Shown here in pieces: positions 25,272 to 52,819 of a stretch of 64,000 nt of DNA. The DNA lies in NCBI GenBank assembly GCA_001915925.1, contig MNRL01000019.1:12448-76447 (forward strand), in the 5' to 3' direction. The DNA is from Clostridium sp. CAG:354_28_25 (GTDB lineage Bacteria > Bacillota > Clostridia > TANB77 > CAG-508). The notes below the pieces were generated by a model. It did not search any database, was not told the DNA's origin, and worked only from the letters and a program-made list of their open reading frames with translations. The translations under genes were made by a program, and so were the position numbers. Position 1 is the first letter of the stretch. The number at the start of each line of letters is the position of its first letter.

Positions 25272-25321
25272 GGATTTTTGGGACGGTCCTAGGGATTTGG
25301 GGACGGTCATAAAATCCCTGT
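25269..25321. repeat. Tandem copy of repeat family: TAGGGATTTTTGGGACGGTCC + TAGGGATTTGGGGACGGTC + ATAAAATCCCTGTA; first TAG is the ytvI-like stop
   Basis: Direct reading; core variant GACGGTC instead of GACGTTC. Confidence 0.7.
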
Positions 25322-25335
25322 AGAAGGGCGTATAT

Positions 25336-26040: not shown

Positions 26041-27270
26041 ATGAAAAAGCCAGAATTATTAGCACCAGCAGGGTCATACGAAAAGGCAAAGACAGCATTT
26101 AGATATGGAGCAGATGCTGTATATTGTGGTACATCATCACTATCTTTAAGAACAAGAGCAGAAATGAATGATGAGGCATTAGCAAAAACAATTGAATATG
26201 CACATAGTATAGGAAAAAGAGTACATGTTGCACTTAATATATTTGCTTGGGATACTAACTATGAAGAGATAAGAAAACAAGCAAAAATGTTACAAGACAT
26301 GAAGGCAGATGGAATAATCGTTGCAGATGGTGGAGTTGTGGAAACTGTAAAAGAATATGCACCAAATGTAGATATACATATAAGTACACAAGCAAATGTA
26401 GTAAGCTTAGAGTCAGCTAAGTTTTGGTATAAAAATGGGGCAAAAAGAGTAATTTTAGCCAGAGAATTAAACAAAGAACAAATAAGATATATGATGCAAA
26501 ACAAACCAGAAGATTTGGAAGTAGAAATGTTTGCACATGGTGCAATATGCTTTGGTTATTCAGGAAGATGTTTCTTAAGTGATTTCTTGGCTTGTAGAAG
26601 TGCAAACTTAGGGGATTGTGCACAAAGTTGTAGATGGGCATATAATTTATATGTAGAAGAGGCAAATAATCCAGGAAATTTAATGCCTGTAGAAACAGAT
26701 GAAAAAGGAACATATATCTTTTCATCAAAAGACTTATGCTTAATACACGAAATACCAGAAATTGTAGATATGGGACTTGATAGCTTAAAAATAGAAGGAA
26801 GATTAAAAACAGAATATTATTTAGCCACAATAGTAAATACATATAGAACAGCAATAGATGATTACGTAAAAGATCCTAAAAATTATAATGCAGATAAATA
26901 CATGCAAGAACTTGAAAAAACTAAAACAAGAGGATTAACAACTTTCTATTTTAATGACAGAAACAATAAAGATTTCCAAGAATATGAAGGAAAACAATAT
27001 AATCCAAATTTTGAATTTGGAGGAAAAGTAGTAGAAACAGTTAATGGAAAAACATCTGTAGAAATAAAGAATAAATTATCTGTTGGTGACGAAATGGAAA
27101 TTATAATTCCGGGAAAAATAGAAGTAGTAAAATTTGCAATAGAAAAATTATGGGATTATGAAACAGACGAAGAAATAGAAACTATAAATCCAGGAGTAAA
27201 AGACCAAAAAGTAAAGATGCAATTACCAATAGAAGTAAAAGAAGGTTGGATATTAAGAAGAAAAAAATAG
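26041..27270 (+). CDS. Peptidase U32 family protein
   Basis: N-terminal ELLAPAGS..AV.AGADAVY U32 signature. Confidence 0.85.
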   Translation: MKKPELLAPAGSYEKAKTAFRYGADAVYCGTSSLSLRTRAEMNDEALAKTIEYAHSIGKRVHVALNIFAWDTNYEEIRKQAKMLQDMKADGIIVADGGVVETVKEYAPNVDIHISTQANVVSLESAKFWYKNGAKRVILARELNKEQIRYMMQNKPEDLEVEMFAHGAICFGYSGRCFLSDFLACRSANLGDCAQSCRWAYNLYVEEANNPGNLMPVETDEKGTYIFSSKDLCLIHEIPEIVDMGLDSLKIEGRLKTEYYLATIVNTYRTAIDDYVKDPKNYNADKYMQELEKTKTRGLTTFYFNDRNNKDFQEYEGKQYNPNFEFGGKVVETVNGKTSVEIKNKLSVGDEMEIIIPGKIEVVKFAIEKLWDYETDEEIETINPGVKDQKVKMQLPIEVKEGWILRRKK

Positions 27271-27298
27271 GGATTGGGGGACGTTCCTTAAATCCCTA
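27268..27298. repeat. Single unit of repeat family TAGGGATT-GGGGGACGTTCCTT-AAATCCCTA (TAG = stop of the U32 gene)
   Basis: 8-bp inverted arms around the GGGGACGTTCC core. Confidence 0.75.
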
Positions 27299-27328
27299 TA
27301 TAAGAAAAGTGTTATAAGGGGGATACAT

Positions 27329-29795: not shown

Positions 29796-30350
29796 ATGAA
29801 AAAAGTAGCTGTAATGATTGCTGATGGAACTGAAGAGATTGAAGCTCTTACCGTAGTAGATGTTATGAGAAGAGCAAATATCAAATGTGATATTGTAAGT
29901 GTTAATGGAAGAGAAATAAAAAGTTCGCACAATATAGAAATATTAGCAGATAAAGTAATAGATGAATCTATTAAAGATTATGATATGATTGTATTACCAG
30001 GTGGTTTGCCAGGAGCATATAATCTAGCTGAAGATAAATTGTTAATAGAAACTTTAAGAGAATTTAGTAAAGATAGTAACAAATATATTGGTGCAATATG
30101 TGCATCACCAGCTATTGTTTTATCTAAAGCAAATATAGAAGAAGGAAAAAATATAACATCATATCCAGGTAAAGGATTCGAAGATTTATTAAAGAAAGCA
30201 AATTACACCGAAAATTTAGTAGAAGTAGATGGAAATATTATAACAAGTAGAGGACCTGCAACAGCAATGCTATTCGCATATAAACTATTAGATGTTTTAG
30301 GTCATAATTCTAAAGAAGTAAGTGATGGAATGCTTTGGAATTTATTATAG
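29796..30350 (+). CDS. DJ-1/PfpI family protein
   Basis: AICASP nucleophile elbow, 184 aa. Confidence 0.8.
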   Translation: MKKVAVMIADGTEEIEALTVVDVMRRANIKCDIVSVNGREIKSSHNIEILADKVIDESIKDYDMIVLPGGLPGAYNLAEDKLLIETLREFSKDSNKYIGAICASPAIVLSKANIEEGKNITSYPGKGFEDLLKKANYTENLVEVDGNIITSRGPATAMLFAYKLLDVLGHNSKEVSDGMLWNLL

Positions 30351-30354
30351 TGAA

Positions 30355-30378
30355 AAAAGGAACGTCCCTAAATCCCGA
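30355..30378. repeat. Reverse-orientation copy AAGGAACGTCCCTAAATCCCGAAGG that supplies the GGAGG RBS of the next gene
   Basis: Reverse complement of GGGATTTAGGGACGTTCC. Confidence 0.6.
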
Positions 30379-33849: not shown

Positions 33850-34050
33850 AACTTCCCTGCATAGTGCGTGTAGACTGGAATTTTAGAACCAACAAATTTT
33901 ATAAGGGAGTCCGCCTTTAAATGTGGCGTGCAAGCTTACACTTCTATTTAGTAGTAAGAAGCCCACAAGCATTTAACAAGACACCCACCTACGCGAGTAG
34001 GCTCTTAAAATTTCTAAACTTCTTACGGCTAAGGCGGGGTAAGTTTTTTT
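33850..34050 (+). ncRNA. Candidate structured non-coding RNA or leader (GC-rich, ends in intrinsic terminator CTTAC-GGCTAAGGCGGGG-GTAAG + T7); second hairpin GTGGC-AAA-GCCAC at 34096-34120
   Basis: About 45-50% GC island without an ORF in a 27% GC genome; alternative pairing CCGCCTT(33911-17)/AAGGCGG(34031-37) competes with the terminator stem. Confidence 0.3.
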
Positions 34051-39900: not shown

Positions 39901-40494
39901 ATGAATAAAGAAATAGAAAGAAAATTTGCTGTAAAGTATTTACCAGAAAATTTAAATGTAGAAAGCATTGTGCATATAAAACAAGCTTTTATATATAGGG
40001 ATAAGTTAACACTTATAAGAATAAGAGACATAAAGGAAAGTTATCCAAAAGATAAGCAAATATATATTTATACACTAAAAACAAAAGGTGATATTGAATA
40101 TAATAATAATTATGATGTTGCTAAAAAATATGAAATAGAAAATGAAATTGATAAAGAATTATTTGATAAGTTAATCAAAAATAAAATTAGTAACATAATA
40201 GAAAAAACAAGAATTAAAATACCAATAGAAAACAACCTAAAAGTTGAAATAGATATATATTATGATTATTTAGAAGGATTACTTACAGCAGAAATAGAAT
40301 TTCCAAACGAAGAATTAGCCAATAAATTCCAAAAACCAGCTTGGCTAGGTAAGGAATTAGGATATAAAAAATTATCAAATAGAAAATTAGCAGAAATGAC
40401 AAAAGATGAATGGCAAAAAGAAGTTACAAAAGAAATGATAGAAAACAATAATATTATAATTAAACAATTAAAAGATAATTATAATATAAAGTAA
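39901..40494 (+). CDS. CYTH-domain protein (triphosphate tunnel metalloenzyme) inserted between grpE and dnaK
   Basis: EIERKF N-terminal signature of the CYTH family. Confidence 0.7.
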   Translation: MNKEIERKFAVKYLPENLNVESIVHIKQAFIYRDKLTLIRIRDIKESYPKDKQIYIYTLKTKGDIEYNNNYDVAKKYEIENEIDKELFDKLIKNKISNIIEKTRIKIPIENNLKVEIDIYYDYLEGLLTAEIEFPNEELANKFQKPAWLGKELGYKKLSNRKLAEMTKDEWQKEVTKEMIENNNIIIKQLKDNYNIK

Positions 40495-43625: not shown

Positions 43626-43630
43626 AAATT

Positions 43631-43661
43631 TCGGGATTTGGGGACGTTGTTTAAATCCCGA
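43631..43661. repeat. Single unit TCGGGATTT-GGGGACGTTGTTT-AAATCCCGA located 6 nt after the dnaJ stop
   Basis: Perfect 9-bp inverted arms around the core. Confidence 0.8.
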
Positions 43662-43781
43662 TTAATATATATGAATCAAAAATGTCAAGATAGAATTTAT
43701 ATTTCTTTTCTTGACTTTTTTGATGCTAGTAAAAAAATTTAGCCAGACGAATGTATGATATTTCGTCTGGCTAAAAGATGG

Positions 43782-44480
43782 TCATTTAATCGGAACATAC
43801 AAGCTTTTGTCGTGTTTGTAACCACTATCTTTTAAAGCTGCTACCATTGGATTAATATTGGTATCATCCTTTATTAGATAAGTGTCACCGTCACCTGCAT
43901 AAACTAACAACAGGTGGTTCTCATTGTCTGTATTAAATTTTCCCACTTTACTTTTATCAATATGTGGAAATTTAATACTTGCCATCGGATAGAACATCCG
44001 GTGAGCTTTCTGGTCATAAATGCCAGTAAATGGGATTTTGGATGAAGGTGTTAAAAAGTCAAAAATTCCAAGGTCCCATCTCTCTAGTCTAAGGAGAGTA
44101 TGAGCAGTGGATGCATTTAATTGCCCAATCACATTTATCATGTGATACCACTCGGTTTGATCCTTTGTATATAGTGGCATATGATTTGAAGTAAGTCTTA
44201 CCGGCAAGATATCGTCAGACACCTTTTTAAAATTAAAACTTTTTAAGAGGGCATCAAGCCCAAAGAGTGCCGGAATAATAAATGTTCCGAATCCAGCAGC
44301 AAAGATATAGAAATCTTTATTTTTGGAATGATTAAAGATTCTGCCCTTTGTTTCTGCCGGAAAAATGTTGAAACGTTCTCCTTTAAGATTTTTGAAGGTT
44401 ATTCCCTCCTTAGGAATTTTAAAAGCCCGTCCAACAAGTTCTACACCATCTACTTTAGTAATCATTTTTCCATCCTCCAT
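43782..44480 (-). CDS. Hypothetical protein, higher-GC islet gene
   Basis: 232 aa; GC-rich codon usage; own terminator 43735-43775 on the minus strand. Confidence 0.5.
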   Translation of the reverse strand: MEDGKMITKVDGVELVGRAFKIPKEGITFKNLKGERFNIFPAETKGRIFNHSKNKDFYIFAAGFGTFIIPALFGLDALLKSFNFKKVSDDILPVRLTSNHMPLYTKDQTEWYHMINVIGQLNASTAHTLLRLERWDLGIFDFLTPSSKIPFTGIYDQKAHRMFYPMASIKFPHIDKSKVGKFNTDNENHLLLVYAGDGDTYLIKDDTNINPMVAALKDSGYKHDKSLYVPIK

Positions 44481-44631
44481 TGTTGTTGATTGGAATCTAA
44501 ACAGCTTGTTATCGCAAAAATTATATCATAATTTACATAAAAAAGCAACATCTTGCAAAAACACAAAAATTATGTTAAGCTAGTGAAGATAACAATATAA
44601 CAATTTCCTAATCAATAAAGGAGGAAAAAAT

Positions 44632-44937
44632 ATGAAACTTTTAAACGAACTAGTACAAAAAGATTTTACCGAGAAGATTTCCGATGGAATTGGAAAAGCA
44701 ATCTTGTTTCCAAAAGAAGCAAGCTGTATCCGGATAGAACCGGGAAAAGAAATTGAACTGCATCACCATGATAAGGACCATGAGATATATATGGTTTTAC
44801 ATGGAGAGGTTGTAATTTTAGGAAATCTATATAAGAAAGGAGAGTTTCATGTTTGCAATTGTGGCGAATCACACAATTGTAGAAATTCGGGAGCCACCGA
44901 AACCATATTGTTAACAATGAAGATAGACGCGGAGTAA
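44632..44937 (+). CDS. Cupin-domain protein
   Basis: HHHDKDHEIYMVLHGE cupin motif; GC-rich. Confidence 0.6.
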   Translation: MKLLNELVQKDFTEKISDGIGKAILFPKEASCIRIEPGKEIELHHHDKDHEIYMVLHGEVVILGNLYKKGEFHVCNCGESHNCRNSGATETILLTMKIDAE

Positions 44938-45027
44938 TCCGCGTCATTTTCATACTTATATATTACCTCAACTTAAACCGAAAATTACTTAGTTAATCTT
45001 ACGCATAGTTATAATTTGAATCAAAAG

Positions 45028-45058
45028 AGGGATTTTAAGAACGTCCCCAAAATCCCTA
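45028..45058. repeat. Reverse-orientation unit AGGGATTTT-AAGAACGTCCCC-AAAATCCCT
   Basis: 9-bp inverted arms around GAACGTCCCC. Confidence 0.8.
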
Positions 45059-45123
45059 AAGTACATATTGGCAAAAAGAAAATGTAGTGATATAATTTAG
45101 AAAAAATATGCGAAGAGGTAAAA

Positions 45124-46233
45124 ATGAAATACGAAGGACAATACGAAAAGCTAAATTTGCCAGCTTATATGAAATTTGGAATAGAAATAGAAGCTAATAA
45201 TGTTCAAACGAAAAATGGGTTATATGCTGGCGAAAGTGCGAAGTTTATAACCGATAGAAACTGGCATATGGCAACAAAATGGGAAGAAAGTTTAGTTGGA
45301 GAAAATGGAGCAGAACTTGTTTCACCAATTTTAACAGATACGGAAACTACATGGAGGAATATAGCAGAAATCTGTAGTAAGATTAAAGAATTTCCAAAAG
45401 ATAAAAGTAAAGAAGTTAAGGCAGACGAGAAATGTGGATTACATGTGCATTTTGATGCAGAATATTTATCAAGTGATCCTAAAAAAATGAAAAATTTTCT
45501 TAATATATATGCTGAAGCCGAAGAACTTATATATAAAATGTGTAATGATAAAAATGATCCAATACGACCTAAAGCTATAAACAAAAATTTTCATGGATTA
45601 TCAAATGTTATTTCTGCTATTTGGAGAAATGGTATGGCAACACCTACTAGCAAAAAAATATTGAAAAAGCTTAATAATGGAACGTTAAAGGTATCACATA
45701 AAAAATTTGGAAAATTAAGAATGGTTGCTAGTAAATTTAAGCTAGACGAAAGAAGATATGCAGGGCTTAATCTAACTAATATTGGAAATAGCAAGAAAAA
45801 TACCATAGAATTTAGGATGGCTAATGGAACACTTAATCCAGAAGTAATAAAACAAAATGTATTTTTATATGCATCAATTATAGATACAGCTGTGAAGATG
45901 ACAGAGAAACCAGAAAAATATGAACAAAAAATGCAAAAGTTTTTAAATCACGATGTTACAGAACAAGAAAAAGCACAAAGTTTTTTAAATTTGATTATAG
46001 ATTCTGACGAGGATAAAAAGATATATTTAGATAGATGGGAATCTGTAAAAGATGCTAAAGTTTTTTCTAAAAATGCTAGAAAGGGATTTGCAACAACTTT
46101 TAAAAGAGAAGAATTTAAAGATATAGCAACAAGAACTAAGGGAAGCAAGATAAGAGCAACATTTAATAAAATAAAAGATTTTGTATATGCCAAAGAAGAA
46201 AGAGGAGATAAAGAAGATAATGTTAGAACTTAG
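45124..46233 (+). CDS. Amidoligase-family (PF12224-like, GS-type) enzyme with lysine-rich C-terminal tail
   Basis: FGIEIE, ELVSP, GLHVHFD and TIEFRMANGT motifs in the order typical of the putative amidoligase family. Confidence 0.55.
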   Translation: MKYEGQYEKLNLPAYMKFGIEIEANNVQTKNGLYAGESAKFITDRNWHMATKWEESLVGENGAELVSPILTDTETTWRNIAEICSKIKEFPKDKSKEVKADEKCGLHVHFDAEYLSSDPKKMKNFLNIYAEAEELIYKMCNDKNDPIRPKAINKNFHGLSNVISAIWRNGMATPTSKKILKKLNNGTLKVSHKKFGKLRMVASKFKLDERRYAGLNLTNIGNSKKNTIEFRMANGTLNPEVIKQNVFLYASIIDTAVKMTEKPEKYEQKMQKFLNHDVTEQEKAQSFLNLIIDSDEDKKIYLDRWESVKDAKVFSKNARKGFATTFKREEFKDIATRTKGSKIRATFNKIKDFVYAKEERGDKEDNVRT

Positions 46234-46648
46234 ATATAGAAATGCTTTTAAAGAAGTAGATGAAATATTAAGGTATACAGATATAGATTTAGTAAATAAG
46301 ATTCCTAAAAAGTTTATTGATTTTTTGAGAGCGAATATGAATAATGACTACGAATTTAATGTACAAGAAGGACTCCGTTTAAATAAACAAAAACTATCTG
46401 AAGAAGCTAATAATATCTTGGCTTTAATATATAGAGATTATTGGTCAACAGAAGAAGAAAAAGAAGAATTTAGAAAAAAGGATGAAGAAGAAAGAAAATT
46501 AAATGAAGAAAAATTGAAGCATATATTTGACAGAAAGGATAATGATCCAATAGAAGAAAAAAAGAATAATAAACTTATAAAAATAGAACATGAAAGCTTT
46601 ATAAAAAGATTATTTTCAAGGTTAAAAAGATTTTTTTGGAAGAATTAA
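46220..46648 (+). CDS. Partner protein of the amidoligase (about 142 aa, basic C-terminal helix RLKRFFWKN); paralogous to 55545..55955
   Basis: RBS AGAGGAGA 10 nt upstream of ATG 46220, overlaps the amidoligase stop; clear similarity to the 55545 ORF. Confidence 0.55.
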   Translation: MLELRYRNAFKEVDEILRYTDIDLVNKIPKKFIDFLRANMNNDYEFNVQEGLRLNKQKLSEEANNILALIYRDYWSTEEEKEEFRKKDEEERKLNEEKLKHIFDRKDNDPIEEKKNNKLIKIEHESFIKRLFSRLKRFFWKN

Positions 46649-46826
46649 AAAAGGCGTAATTATTTTTGCGTCTTTTTAATTATGTCAAATAAAATTGTTG
46701 TAATTAGTAAAAGCATAATTTTCTACTAAAAAATATTGCAAAGTTATGTCAAATTATTTTACAGAATTATGAGTTATATGATATAATGCAAACTATGAAA
46801 GCATAAAATAAAATAGGAGATATTAT

Positions 46827-47669
46827 ATGGAAATAATATTAGGTAAAACAGCCGGTTTTTGCAATGGAATTACACGAGCAGTAGAGACTGCTAAAGAGGA
46901 ATTAAAAAATACAGAGAACTTAGATTGTTTAGGAGATTTATTACATAATAATCAAGTGCTAAATAAACTAAAAGCAAATGGACTTAGAATAATAACTGAT
47001 ATAAAAGAAGCCAAAGAAAGAGTACTAATAAGAGCTCATGGTGTAAAAAAAGAAGTTTATGAATATGCAAGTAAAAATAATATAGAATTAATAGATTGTA
47101 CATGTCCAAAAGTACTAAAAATTCATGATTTGGCAGAAGAATTGTCAAATAAAGATTATTATATTTTAGTAATTGGCGAGAAATCTCATGCAGAAGTCGT
47201 GGGAACATTTAGTTTTTGCAAAAATGGCGAAGTAATAGAGAATATAGAACAATTGCAAGCACGAATTGATGATTTGAATAAAAAAGAAAAATTGGCAGTA
47301 TTAACACAAACAACATATAATTTACAAAAATTTTTACAAATAGAGCAATATTTAAAAGAAAATATAAAAACAAGGCTGGAAATATATAATGGTATTTGTA
47401 ATGCTACAGAAAGTAGACAAAAAGAGACAGAAAAAATATCTAAAGATGTAGAATATATGGTCATAATTGGAGGCAAAAAAAGCTCTAATACAAATAAATT
47501 ATATGAAATTGCACAAAGAAATTGCAAAAATGCTATTAAAATAGAAGAAGTATCAGAGTTATATAATGAGAATTTTGCAAATATAAATAAAATAGGTGTG
47601 ATGGCAGGTGCTTCAACACCACAGGAAAGTATAGAAGAAGTTATAAACTATTTAAAGGAGAGGAATTAA
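46827..47669 (+). CDS. ispH: 4-hydroxy-3-methylbut-2-enyl diphosphate reductase
   Basis: GFCNGIT N-terminal cluster cysteine motif; 280 aa. Confidence 0.85.
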   Translation: MEIILGKTAGFCNGITRAVETAKEELKNTENLDCLGDLLHNNQVLNKLKANGLRIITDIKEAKERVLIRAHGVKKEVYEYASKNNIELIDCTCPKVLKIHDLAEELSNKDYYILVIGEKSHAEVVGTFSFCKNGEVIENIEQLQARIDDLNKKEKLAVLTQTTYNLQKFLQIEQYLKENIKTRLEIYNGICNATESRQKETEKISKDVEYMVIIGGKKSSNTNKLYEIAQRNCKNAIKIEEVSELYNENFANINKIGVMAGASTPQESIEEVINYLKERN

Positions 47670-50202: not shown

Positions 50203-52239
50203 ATGAAAATAATGGTAAATAAAGGAGAATTTAAAGATTTAATTCAAAGAGAATGGATAATAGCTAATGGAATAGGAGGATTTGCAGCATCTACAGTTAC
50301 AGGTGCCAACACAAGAAAATATCATGGGTTATTGGTTGCAGCACTAACACCTCCGGCAAGACGATTTTTAGTATTATCTAAGGTGGATGAATCTATAGAA
50401 TTTAATGGATGCAAATATCCTTTATATACTAATATTTGCGATAATTATATTTCTGATGGTTATAAAAGAATAGAATCATTCGAGAAAAAATATGTACCAA
50501 CATATACATATAAAATAGACGATATTTCTATCCAAAAGACTATAAGTATGCAATATGGTAGAAATACAGTTGTTATATTATACAATATTAAGAATGGAAA
50601 TTATGATTCAAAATTAACATTGGCTCCAATAATAAATTATAGAGATTTTCATCAAGTTAATAAAGATACAGAATTCAATTTGAAAGAAAATATAAGTGGC
50701 ACAAAAGTAAGAATAGTTGTAAAAAATGAAAGTCAAACACCATTTTATATGAAATGTTCAGAAGGAACATATATAGAACATCATAATGATATATTTTATA
50801 GGATGTTTTATATGGAAGAAGAAAAAAGAGGGTTTGACCCAATAGAAAACCATGCAATTCCAGGTAGATATGAGATAGAATTAAAACCAAATGAAGAGAA
50901 AAATATATCATTTGTATTTTCATTAGAAGAGAATATAGACGAAATAAAAGCAGAGGATGTTATTAAGCAAGAAGAGGTAAGATTAAAGAAGATAGTAACA
51001 GATACGGGCTTAATAAATGAAAATACAGAGGATAAAGAATTAATAGAAGATTTTATAATTACTACTGATAGCTTTATTGCATACAGACCATCATTTGGAC
51101 TTCATACTATAATTGCAGGTTACCCATGGTTTTTAGATTGGGGTAGAGATAGTTTAATAGCATTTGAAGGATTACTACTTAAAACAAAGAGATTTGATAT
51201 AGCAAAAGAAGTTTTACTAACATTTATTAGAGATATAAAATATGGGCTTGTACCAAATGGATATTCCGGATATGATAACAGACCATTATATAATAGTGCA
51301 GATGCTTCATTATTACTTTTTGAAGAAATAAAAAAATATATTAATTATACGAATGACTATAAATTTATAAAGGACAATTTTTATATTTGTTTAAAGAAAA
51401 TAATAGAGGCATATATTACAGGAATAGATGTAGATGATAATAATATTTATATGGAAAGAGATGGTTTAATTCATTCTGGAACAATAAATACCCAAAATAC
51501 ATGGATGGATGTAAAGATTGGAGATTTTGCAGTAACCCCTAGAAATGGAAAAGCAGTAGAAATAAATAGTTTATGGTATAATGCTTTAAAAATAATGGAA
51601 GAGCTTGCAAAAAAATTCGAAACTAAAAAAGTTGCAGAAATGTATGCAGAATTAGCAGAAAAAACTCAGAAATCATTTAATAGAAAATTTTATAATTCAG
51701 ACAAGAAATCATTGTATGATGTATTAGGTGATGACAGAATAAGACCAAATCAATTATTTAGTTTATCACTTAGTTACCAAGTTTTAAATCCAGCAGGAAA
51801 AAATGCTAAAGAAATTTTAAAAACTGTAACTAATGAACTATATACAAAACATGGATTACGTACTTTAAATAGAAAGGATAAGCAGTATATTGCTACATAT
51901 GAAGGAGATTCATACAGAAGGGATATAAGTTACCACCAAGGAATAACTTGGCCATGGCTTTTTGGATTATATAATGATGCATACAAGAATGTAATAGCTA
52001 ATACAAAAGAGGGGAAAGTTAAAGGTGAATTGCAAAAGCAGTATGACTTATTCGTTAAAAATTTAAGAGTAACAGCTAAAACAATGATGTATAAAGAAGG
52101 GTGTATATTAAGTATTGCAGAACTATATGACTCTAAACCTCCATATTTACCTAAAGGCGCTTTTTCACAAGCTTGGAGTGTTGCAGAAATATTTAGAATA
52201 ATATTAGATTCAAAAACAGAAGAAGAGGAAGGAAAATGA
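50203..52239 (+). CDS. Glycogen debranching enzyme (amylo-alpha-1,6-glucosidase, GDE_C family)
   Basis: 678 aa; GYPWFLDWGRDS motif. Confidence 0.8.
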   Translation: MKIMVNKGEFKDLIQREWIIANGIGGFAASTVTGANTRKYHGLLVAALTPPARRFLVLSKVDESIEFNGCKYPLYTNICDNYISDGYKRIESFEKKYVPTYTYKIDDISIQKTISMQYGRNTVVILYNIKNGNYDSKLTLAPIINYRDFHQVNKDTEFNLKENISGTKVRIVVKNESQTPFYMKCSEGTYIEHHNDIFYRMFYMEEEKRGFDPIENHAIPGRYEIELKPNEEKNISFVFSLEENIDEIKAEDVIKQEEVRLKKIVTDTGLINENTEDKELIEDFIITTDSFIAYRPSFGLHTIIAGYPWFLDWGRDSLIAFEGLLLKTKRFDIAKEVLLTFIRDIKYGLVPNGYSGYDNRPLYNSADASLLLFEEIKKYINYTNDYKFIKDNFYICLKKIIEAYITGIDVDDNNIYMERDGLIHSGTINTQNTWMDVKIGDFAVTPRNGKAVEINSLWYNALKIMEELAKKFETKKVAEMYAELAEKTQKSFNRKFYNSDKKSLYDVLGDDRIRPNQLFSLSLSYQVLNPAGKNAKEILKTVTNELYTKHGLRTLNRKDKQYIATYEGDSYRRDISYHQGITWPWLFGLYNDAYKNVIANTKEGKVKGELQKQYDLFVKNLRVTAKTMMYKEGCILSIAELYDSKPPYLPKGAFSQAWSVAEIFRIILDSKTEEEEGK

Positions 52240-52728
52240 GAATATTAGGAATTGACCCTGGGTTTGCAATAACACGGGTATAGCATAATAGATTACATAG
52301 GAAATAAATTTAAACTAGAAACATCTGGTGCAATATTAACAGAAGCTGGTGAATCTTTTCCGCTAAGGTTAGAGAAGATTTACACAGATTTAAATAATAT
52401 AATAAATACATATAAACCAGATGCGATGTCAATAGAAGAGCTATTTTTTAATAATAACGCAAAAACAGCTATTAATGTTGCTCAGGCAAGGGGAGTGATA
52501 TTAATAACAGCAAGAATAAACAAATTAGATATATTCGAATATACACCATTACAAATAAAGCAAGCAGTGACAGGATATGGTAGAGCAGATAAAATGCAAG
52601 TACAAAGAATGGTGAAAATGATATTAAATACAGAAAAATTACCAAAATTGGATGATATAACAGATAGTATGGCAATAGCAATTTGCCATGCACATTCATC
52701 TAAGTTTTCATCTCAATTTAAATTATAA
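52237..52728 (+). pseudogene. ruvC: Holliday-junction resolvase RuvC interrupted by an apparent +1 frameshift near 52274-52282
   Basis: MRILGIDPGFAITRV* then in the next frame YSIIDYIGNKF...AICHAHS; a single extra base restores the ITGYS reading. Confidence 0.7.
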
Positions 52729-52755: not shown

Positions 52756-52805
52756 TTTTGGGACGTTCCCAGACAGGGATTTTGGGGACGTTCCTTAAAT
52801 CCCGA
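52756..52805. repeat. Double-core copy TTTTTGGGACGTTCCCAGACAGGGATTTTGGGGACGTTCCTTAAATCCCG
   Basis: Direct reading between ruvC and holA. Confidence 0.8.
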
Positions 52806-52819
52806 AAAGGAAGATGGAT

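Follow-up and report, generated by a model that had tools for sequence, protein, structure and literature searches.

An amidoligase gene and an overlapping gene for a helical protein with a cationic amphipathic end in gut Clostridia

Herein, we describe a pair of overlapping genes in a 64,000-nucleotide stretch of the Clostridium sp. CAG:354_28_25 genome (contig MNRL01000019.1, positions 12,448 to 76,447), which we call the window; the source is a spore-forming gut Clostridium of low GC content (about 27%). The first gene encodes an enzyme of the amidoligase family, and the second encodes a small protein, here named B. Judged from their sequences and gene order, the two appear to form a real two-part system that has been kept together across about 45 species. 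The enzyme family is already known but functionally uncharacterised, while the B family and its coupling to the enzyme have not been described before: Pfam, NCBIfam, PHROGs, PADLOC, PDB and the searchable literature held no description of either, and nothing specific was found in the literature on an amidoligase toxin-antitoxin system or an amidoligase partner. The coordinates of all features are collected in Table 1, where loci from other genomes carry our labels (L followed by a number).

The amidoligase, protein B and their operon

Carboxylate-amine ligases that resemble glutamine synthetase (GS) join an amine to a carboxylate in an ATP-driven reaction. The original prediction placed the first gene of the pair in this group because of four ordered motifs (FGIEIE, ELVSP, GLHVHFD and TIEFRMANGT). 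The motifs are present in that order in an open reading frame (ORF) of 369 codons, and the family assignment holds: the protein matches PF12224 (Amidoligase_2) with 71.2 bits against a cut-off of 22, residues 40–251 aligning with positions 50–243 of the 245-position profile, and it matches PHROG 2443, annotated as amidoligase enzyme, at E 1.5e-20. PF12224 was also present in all listed homologues. An alignment of 58 amidoligase sequences (60–86% identity) has 82 invariant columns, including E21, E23, E64, H107, H109, E229 and R231, which we take to be the metal- and ATP-binding positions of GS (ExE strand, Glu, HxH, ExR). The predicted fold is GS-like and has the features of the catalytic fold of GS and glutamate-cysteine ligase, as is also indicated by the profile matches together with the invariant motif residues. 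Profile, motifs and fold thus predict an intact GS-fold carboxylate-amine ligase. When the window was scanned in six frames with the amidoligase profile, 45091–46230 was the single matching region.

The enzyme had also been credited with a lysine-rich tail of about 120 residues, which did not stand up. Lysine makes up 16.7% of the tail versus 13.3% of the core, the net charge of the tail is only +4, and residues 252–312 are a conserved part of the subfamily, common to all relatives, those without B included. The segment beyond them (about residues 313–362) was detected in 35 B-linked enzymes, all of the short form, and in none of the 27 B-less enzymes. Two loops, at residues 155–170 and 192–211, combine strong conservation (W167, R168 and the invariant D208-E-R-R-Y212) with a low-confidence model, and either may contact the substrate or the partner.

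Protein B consists of a helical N-terminal domain (residues 1–108), a disordered linker (109–126) and a cationic amphipathic C-terminal helix (127–139). Its AlphaFold2 model has a mean confidence (pLDDT) of 86 overall and above 94 over residues 1–100, and comprises five helices, a low-confidence linker and the terminal helix. The C-terminal helix of the window protein, IKRLFSRLKRFFWK, has a hydrophobic moment of 0.87, in agreement with the amphipathic basic helix that the original prediction had placed there. Throughout the family, the terminal helix has a mean hydrophobic moment of 0.74 versus 0.46 for shuffled sequences, exceeding its shuffles in 128 out of 128 members. The last 20 residues carry a mean net charge of +4.9 (+3 or more in 96% of members), and the very last residues are variable, being K, R, N or S.

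A profile built from 14 members of the B family was searched against 1.84 billion proteins and retrieved 4,665 representative clusters at E <=1e-3, and 3,058 at E <=1e-10. Almost all members are stand-alone proteins of about 145–155 amino acids (aa), and a few are tandem doubles. Searches of Pfam, NCBIfam and PHROGs with the window protein gave no assignment; comparing 128 members with Pfam gave scattered single matches and no common family; and the B profile matched nothing among PDB sequences below E 0.15. Neither a catalytic family nor a fold relative was detected for B. It can be described as a helical, non-enzymatic protein whose family, so far undescribed, always ends in a cationic amphipathic helix.

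The two genes appear to make up a self-contained two-gene operon, with a promoter, the amidoligase, the overlapping B gene and a terminator. Upstream lies a putative promoter of the sigma-70/sigma-A type, recognised by consensus match alone, at 11 of 12 positions with an extended -10 element. The hairpin that closes the operon folds more stably than its shuffles (z = -4.9). As the original prediction stated, the B start codon precedes the amidoligase stop codon, and the overlap recurs elsewhere: the B start codon is inside the amidoligase gene in 40 out of 43 orthologous pairs, with an overlap of mostly 11 nt (14 nt in the clade of the window), and a Shine-Dalgarno sequence of the AAGGAG type precedes the B ATG in these pairs. 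This arrangement indicates that B production is coupled to amidoligase translation, which had been claimed from the window alone.

Linkage across genomes and other partners of the B family

Our survey of the amidoligase used one genome per species and returned 76 loci. B is located immediately downstream, on the same strand, in every orthologue down to 39% identity apart from two (L040 and L055, discussed below). These orthologues come from the guts of humans, mice, chickens, rabbits and sheep and represent about 45 genomes at species level. Co-occurrence of the B family with PF12224 was thus borne out by conserved adjacency. In three orthologues that seemed to lack B, the gene had been missed by the ORF caller and was seen by tblastn. 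Longer and more distant amidoligases (534–762 aa) adjoin B in other gene orders (L007, L056, L059, L060, L219), while those of RF39-like Bacilli in metagenome-assembled genomes (about 27% identity) occur without B. A third small family, "c12" (125–155 aa, Pfam search empty), accompanies the longer amidoligases whether B is present or not, and is absent from the window.

One locus, L180 (its positions 1–1685 correspond to window positions 44478–47254), carries a deletion that runs from about codon 26 of the amidoligase to about codon 66 of B. The junction is a microhomology of 12 nt, GAAGCTAATAAT, and the allele has a further 1-nt deletion. By its sequence, this allele represents a presence/absence polymorphism of the module; since it is a natural deletion, the pair seems to be dispensable and to be lost as a unit.

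Reading-frame differences were seen in other amidoligase genes. In four species, an extra C around codon 95 causes a +1 frameshift. Each frameshift yields a zero-frame CGG (CCT-CGG-A twice and AAA-CGG-A/C twice), a codon that is rare in those genomes (33/108,075 codons). The reading frame beyond the shift is intact, is conserved over species-level divergence and lacks a plausible start codon. Programmed +1 frameshifting is exemplified by Ty1 and prfB, and the present cases look like such frameshifting at a hungry codon rather than decay; an assembly artefact is also possible. In the window itself, the amidoligase gene contains an A7 tract (45481–45487), which is A6 in metagenome contig L221 and would frameshift the gene there; the shorter tract reflects either an error in sequencing or variable homopolymer length.

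The window contains a second gene of the B family, B2, which matches the B profile at E 9.7e-36 and whose exact sequence occurs in 3,779 indexed blocks of the assembly collection. The original prediction described B2 and the gene before it as a paralogous copy of the amidoligase pair (54060–55955). This is correct for B2 only; the 491-aa protein encoded upstream has no similarity to the amidoligase (best E 0.44), gave no match in Pfam, NCBIfam or PADLOC, and has homologues confined to close relatives. Its motif HGYAH...EEGNAD reads as a degenerate form of an HExxH...ExxA[ND]-like signature. In other B partners the HExxH is unbroken and an ExxA[ND]-like motif comes after it; the 491-aa protein may be zincin-like with the catalytic Glu lost.

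Further B loci were found in metagenomes by means of a DNA pattern for YRDYWAT, and the sample is therefore biased toward that motif. The partners tabulated are all encoded upstream of B, and the HExxH proteins among them have no Pfam match. Positions E12, V13, K27-I28-P29, Y44, Q57, Y71-R72-x-Y74-W75 and F103 of B are conserved family-wide, while T20, L24, F32, F35, N39, L69, I70 and E80 are conserved solely in the amidoligase-linked clade. A neighbour-joining tree groups the B partners of short amidoligases into one large clade and places the HExxH-linked ones mostly in another, which suggests that B subfamilies largely track partner type. We rejected the idea that the amidoligase tail is a docking module shared with the 491-aa protein or with other B partners, as a profile of the tail retrieved amidoligases only and BLAST among the partners was empty.

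The locus and its neighbourhood

The genes in this part of the window are, in order, hemN-like, a hydrolase, hrcA, grpE, a 197-aa unknown, dnaK, dnaJ, a 232-aa unknown (minus strand), a cupin, the amidoligase, B, ispH, murB, cofD-like, a glycogen-debranching enzyme, ruvC, holA, a 60-aa ORF, the 491-aa ORF, B2 and gpr. The pair had been reported as inserted between dnaJ and ispH. This position was found in the window species and its five closest representatives (L011–L015) and not in other loci; outside L011–L015 the flanking genes differ in most loci, while close relatives share them.

The interval between dnaJ and ispH seems to be a variable spot. Between dnaJ and the pair lies an islet that had been described as having two genes and a higher GC content. 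The two genes are there, and the GC excess is only marginal (0.35–0.37 versus 0.30–0.34 in dnaJ). The 232-aa islet protein has zero matches in Pfam, NCBIfam, PHROGs and PADLOC; its identity is 34–89% across genomes in which DnaJ is 92–99% identical, so it is either fast-evolving or repeatedly replaced. The cupin gene is missing from L012, L014, L015 and L132.

The original prediction further called the pair a repeat-flanked module. A repeat copy does lie upstream, at 45023–45058. Flanking was not supported, as a pattern search of the window found no copy downstream of the pair and the repeat is dispersed: eight copies were found in the window, all of them intergenic at the 3' ends of genes. 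The upstream copy and the one that follows dnaJ bracket the islet, not the amidoligase pair, in inverted orientation. The repeat was matched four times with <=3 mismatches versus zero matches expected, and no Rfam family covers it. Folding of the upstream copy gives a hairpin of -14.9 kcal/mol that is terminator-like on the minus strand, and the dispersed hairpin of ~34 nt resembles repetitive extragenic palindromic (REP) elements or terminators.

Several other features of the window were recorded. The 197-aa protein encoded between grpE and dnaK, within the hrcA-grpE-dnaK-dnaJ heat-shock cluster, gave an empty Pfam search and keeps its position among close relatives. The 6S RNA (Rfam RF00013, 102.7 bits) is the sole Rfam family detected in the window. 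The ruvC gene is broken by a frameshift near 52261–52274, which leaves the N-terminal 13 codons (the start of the nuclease) in a different frame, and the resulting 100-aa gene call is identical in four independent assemblies. In holA, a single open frame runs throughout and both the N and C domains of DNA_pol3_delta are present; gene callers give only the C-terminal half because no ATG, GTG or TTG start is found before 53334, and a non-canonical start codon is possible.

Table 1. Features of the window and of related loci in other genomes
Feature	Location	Strand	Remarks
Promoter-like site, sigma-70/sigma-A type	45068..45096	plus	TTGGCA, 17 nt, TATAAT; TG before the -10 hexamer
Amidoligase, GS-like carboxylate-amine ligase (predicted), 369 aa	45124..46233	plus	PF12224 match
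Shine-Dalgarno sequence GAGGAG for B	46202..46207	plus	Within the amidoligase coding sequence; read from sequence
Protein B, 142 aa	46220..46648	plus	ATG 14 nt before amidoligase stop 46233
Intrinsic-terminator-like hairpin and U-run closing the operon	46643..46681	plus	Fold -13.3 kcal/mol
Repeat copy upstream of the operon, outside it	45023..45058	minus	~34-nt palindromic intergenic repeat GGGATTTnGGGGACGTTCnTTAAATCCC
Repeat copy directly 3' of dnaJ	43630..43663	plus	
Other repeat copies	24-57; 25289-25322; 27267-27300; 30346-30376; 52774-52807; 56999-57032		
Variable islet between dnaJ and the pair	43782..44937		Context, outside the module
Islet gene 1, 232-aa protein	43782-44480	minus	
Islet gene 2, 101-aa cupin	44632-44937	plus	Cupin_2 E 1.3e-7
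Islet terminator	44926-44945		
491-aa protein	54060..55535	plus	10 nt upstream of B2; not an amidoligase
B2, 136 aa, second B-family gene	55545..55955	plus	BLASTP to B 31% identity, E 8e-21
6S RNA	33851-34044		
197-aa protein between grpE and dnaK	39901-40494		
ruvC	52236-52728		
holA	52839-53843		
Frameshifted amidoligases	L045:2419-3487; L046:2285-3380; L047:8001-9087; L055:8001-9081		
c12 copies	L007:6468-6935; L056:5729-6175; L058:7271-7708; L059:9019-9474; L060:6606-6989; L082:6569-6949; L219:3251-3598		
B partner, 530 aa, HEILH	L108, L118, L137, L183, L197		About 101 nt gap
B partner, 385-389 aa, HELIH	L095, L106, L208		15-nt gap or 3-nt overlap
B partner, 440 aa, HEIQH	L125, L148, L211		135-153 nt gap
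B partner, 303 aa, HEIGH	L151		13-nt overlap
B partner, 331 aa, PADLOC PDC-M03A match	L136, L175		HipA-like GNDDIKTDN motif; zero gap
B partner, 868 aa, leucine-rich repeats and Transglut_core	L028		About 7 nt

Possible roles of the pair and comparison with known systems

The original observation was confirmed in part and its interpretation supported in part: the amidoligase, the coupling and the amphipathic end were upheld, while the paralogous pair and the suggested phage or conflict context were not. B has zero matches in 50,697 phage and 72,556 plasmid records, and a motif scan of IMG/VR found one true member (L095). With the PADLOC models, the amidoligase was unmatched and the sole match of B, to AriA, had a non-significant E of 0.014. 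No phage-type genes are annotated around the pair in the window. The 147 neighbour genes sampled from loci L016–L060 match 159 Pfam families, the commonest being prfB domains, Peptidase_M23, ZIP and HTH_3 with four each, and show no integrase, phage or defence pattern. With the phage, plasmid, PADLOC and neighbour-gene searches all negative, an origin of the pair from a phage, a plasmid or a defence system was rejected.

The role that we put forward, as a tentative proposal with somewhat less than an even chance of being right, is that B is a tethering or regulatory subunit that recruits the ligase, and elsewhere other enzymes, to the membrane on its inner side. B would bind the amidoligase, probably via the clade-specific positions of its N-terminal domain and the C-terminal helices of the enzyme (about residues 313–360). 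The C-terminal helix of B would then hold the complex against the membrane from the cytoplasmic side in the manner of the MinD and FtsA helices, and the membrane-held ligase would modify a membrane-proximal carboxylate, possibly in the peptide part of an envelope precursor or in a protein associated with the membrane. In other genomes the family would serve as a reusable adaptor, its partners there being HExxH, transglutaminase-like and HipA-like proteins. We infer this role from a presumed constant face, a presumed partner-specific face and a presumed membrane anchor; the terminal helix is cationic and amphipathic, as expected of a peripheral-membrane anchor, and is set off by a low-confidence linker. 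The tight linkage of the two genes, their joint loss in L180, the clustering of B by partner type, the clade-specific positions and the C-terminal segment of the B-linked enzymes also speak for it. That the whole family is a modular system of gut Firmicutes, with a membrane-anchored common subunit for interchangeable enzymes, seems doubtful at present.

Several observations weigh against a tether. Two genomes (L040 and L055) are real exceptions that retain the amidoligase without B. Six B-linked long amidoligases have no detectable C-terminal segment, and the correlation of this segment with B is partly phylogenetic. Envelope-biosynthesis genes are not consistently nearby in the sample of 147 neighbour genes, and the HipA-like kinase partner better suits a conflict or toxin function than an envelope enzyme. 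The cationic amphipathic helix could also be a membrane-damaging effector instead of an anchor. The latter two points fit a toxin-antitoxin-like or conflict cassette acting in addiction or abortive infection, in which a harmful product is neutralised or kept in check by its partner: the harm would come from the amidoligase acting on an essential target, with B holding the enzyme back, or from membrane damage by the helix of B, with the enzyme curbing B through modification. We regard such a cassette, the main rival to a tether, as unlikely though not negligible. It is favoured by the compact overlapping bicistron with its own promoter and terminator, by flanks that vary across most genomes, by a hypervariable spot beside fast-evolving genes and by the joint loss in L180. 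The B-family partners include a match to PDC-M03A, a PADLOC candidate, along with other enzyme classes typical of effectors, and the B member on the IMG/VR contig adjoins a Zot-like ATPase. Five genomes have a disrupted amidoligase and an intact B, which fits toxin-first decay if the disruptions are real. Set against this are the PADLOC, phage and plasmid results above, neighbours that are ordinary housekeeping genes without an island signature, the two genomes with the enzyme and no B, and the invariant columns of the amidoligase, which look like steady purifying selection. Moreover, the context is common to close relatives, so the variation of the flanks may be rearrangement and not mobility; no window genes shared with the flanks of L016–L060 were found for calibrating divergence, and for this reason mobility of a cassette and ordinary loss of synteny are inseparable here.

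B might instead be the substrate, modified or processed as a tag or peptide precursor by the amidoligase and, elsewhere, by a peptidase, a transglutaminase-like enzyme or a kinase. The recognised partners all belong to protein- or peptide-modifying classes, the conserved N-terminal domain, variable linker and short C-terminal peptide resemble a leader and core, and E12 and E62 are near-invariant carboxylates. We consider this improbable: the C-terminal residues of B are variable, E12 is just as conserved in B proteins with non-ligase partners, the 147 sampled neighbours showed no consistent exporter, immunity gene or proteasome-type partner, and B is folded and, at about 150 aa, large for a peptide precursor. 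Least probable by far is that the enzyme is a prophage-derived amidoligase of the phiEco32 or PHROG 2443 kind, which would change the cell surface to exclude superinfecting phages, with B an incidental neighbour. The PHROG 2443 match and the existence of distant phage homologues speak for it, and a surface-modification role for phage amidoligases has been proposed in literature cited by PMC11318856. The phage matches are only 24–35% identical and partial, however, the sampled flanks bear no mobile-element signature, the window neighbours are not phage-like, gamma-glutamyl cyclotransferase, the partner in prophages, is absent, and the linkage to B is far too tight and wide for an incidental neighbour. 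A sporulation-specific role, suggested by the position of B2 next to gpr, was dropped, as the putative promoter of the amidoligase operon is of the vegetative type and the contexts vary.

The B family is large, unannotated in every library searched and common in abundant human-gut Clostridia, and the range of its partners suggests that it generally serves as an adaptor or control protein for enzymes that modify proteins. If the family is indeed a modular system with a membrane-anchored common subunit, it would represent a class of conflict or regulatory system at the membrane that is new, and of which the amidoligase with B and the 491-aa protein with B2 would be two instances within one genome. 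Now that the amidoligase has a coupled partner, and the membrane is a plausible place for it to act, the enzyme becomes experimentally tractable.

Amidoligases of the PF12224 family have a wide distribution that takes in phages, plasmids and bacteria; the family was reportedly defined by Iyer et al. in 2009 (Mol Biosyst 5:1636), a paper cited in PMC11318856, and we know of no member with a demonstrated substrate or partner. The present enzyme resembles PF12224 and PHROG 2443 proteins in its profile match, its predicted GS-like fold and its set of ExE, E, HxH and ExR motifs. It differs in being chromosomal, short and stand-alone, in its extra C-terminal helical segment and in its coupling to a protein of a family absent from phage records. 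Its identity to YbdK/GCS2 ligases and to GS is 9–13% only (NCBIfam 17 bits, cut-off 176). It also lacks the N-terminal beta-grasp domain of GS and has the two conserved low-confidence loops.

The pair can likewise be set beside other systems. Like type II and type VII toxin-antitoxin systems, it has two overlapping genes and its own promoter, is distributed patchily and in changing locations, and is lost jointly; unlike them, it matched no known toxin-antitoxin or defence model, showed no DNA-binding antitoxin domain and had no mobile context in the neighbour-gene sample. Pup, of the PafA/Dop protein-tagging system, is a small disordered tag with a fixed Gln/Glu at its end. In contrast, B is folded, is about 150 aa long and has a variable basic amphipathic end without a fixed C-terminal Gln/Glu, and no proteasome or Mpa genes were found in the 147-gene sample. 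MinD and FtsA have C-terminal amphipathic helices that target them to the membrane. Like them, B ends in a short helix, cationic and amphipathic, that follows a flexible linker, a comparison of working principle and not of homology, and its helix has a higher hydrophobic moment than those of FtsA and MinD when computed alike. In MinD and FtsA the helix is within the enzyme itself, whereas in the amidoligase system it is on a separate, coupled subunit that is predicted to bind the membrane.

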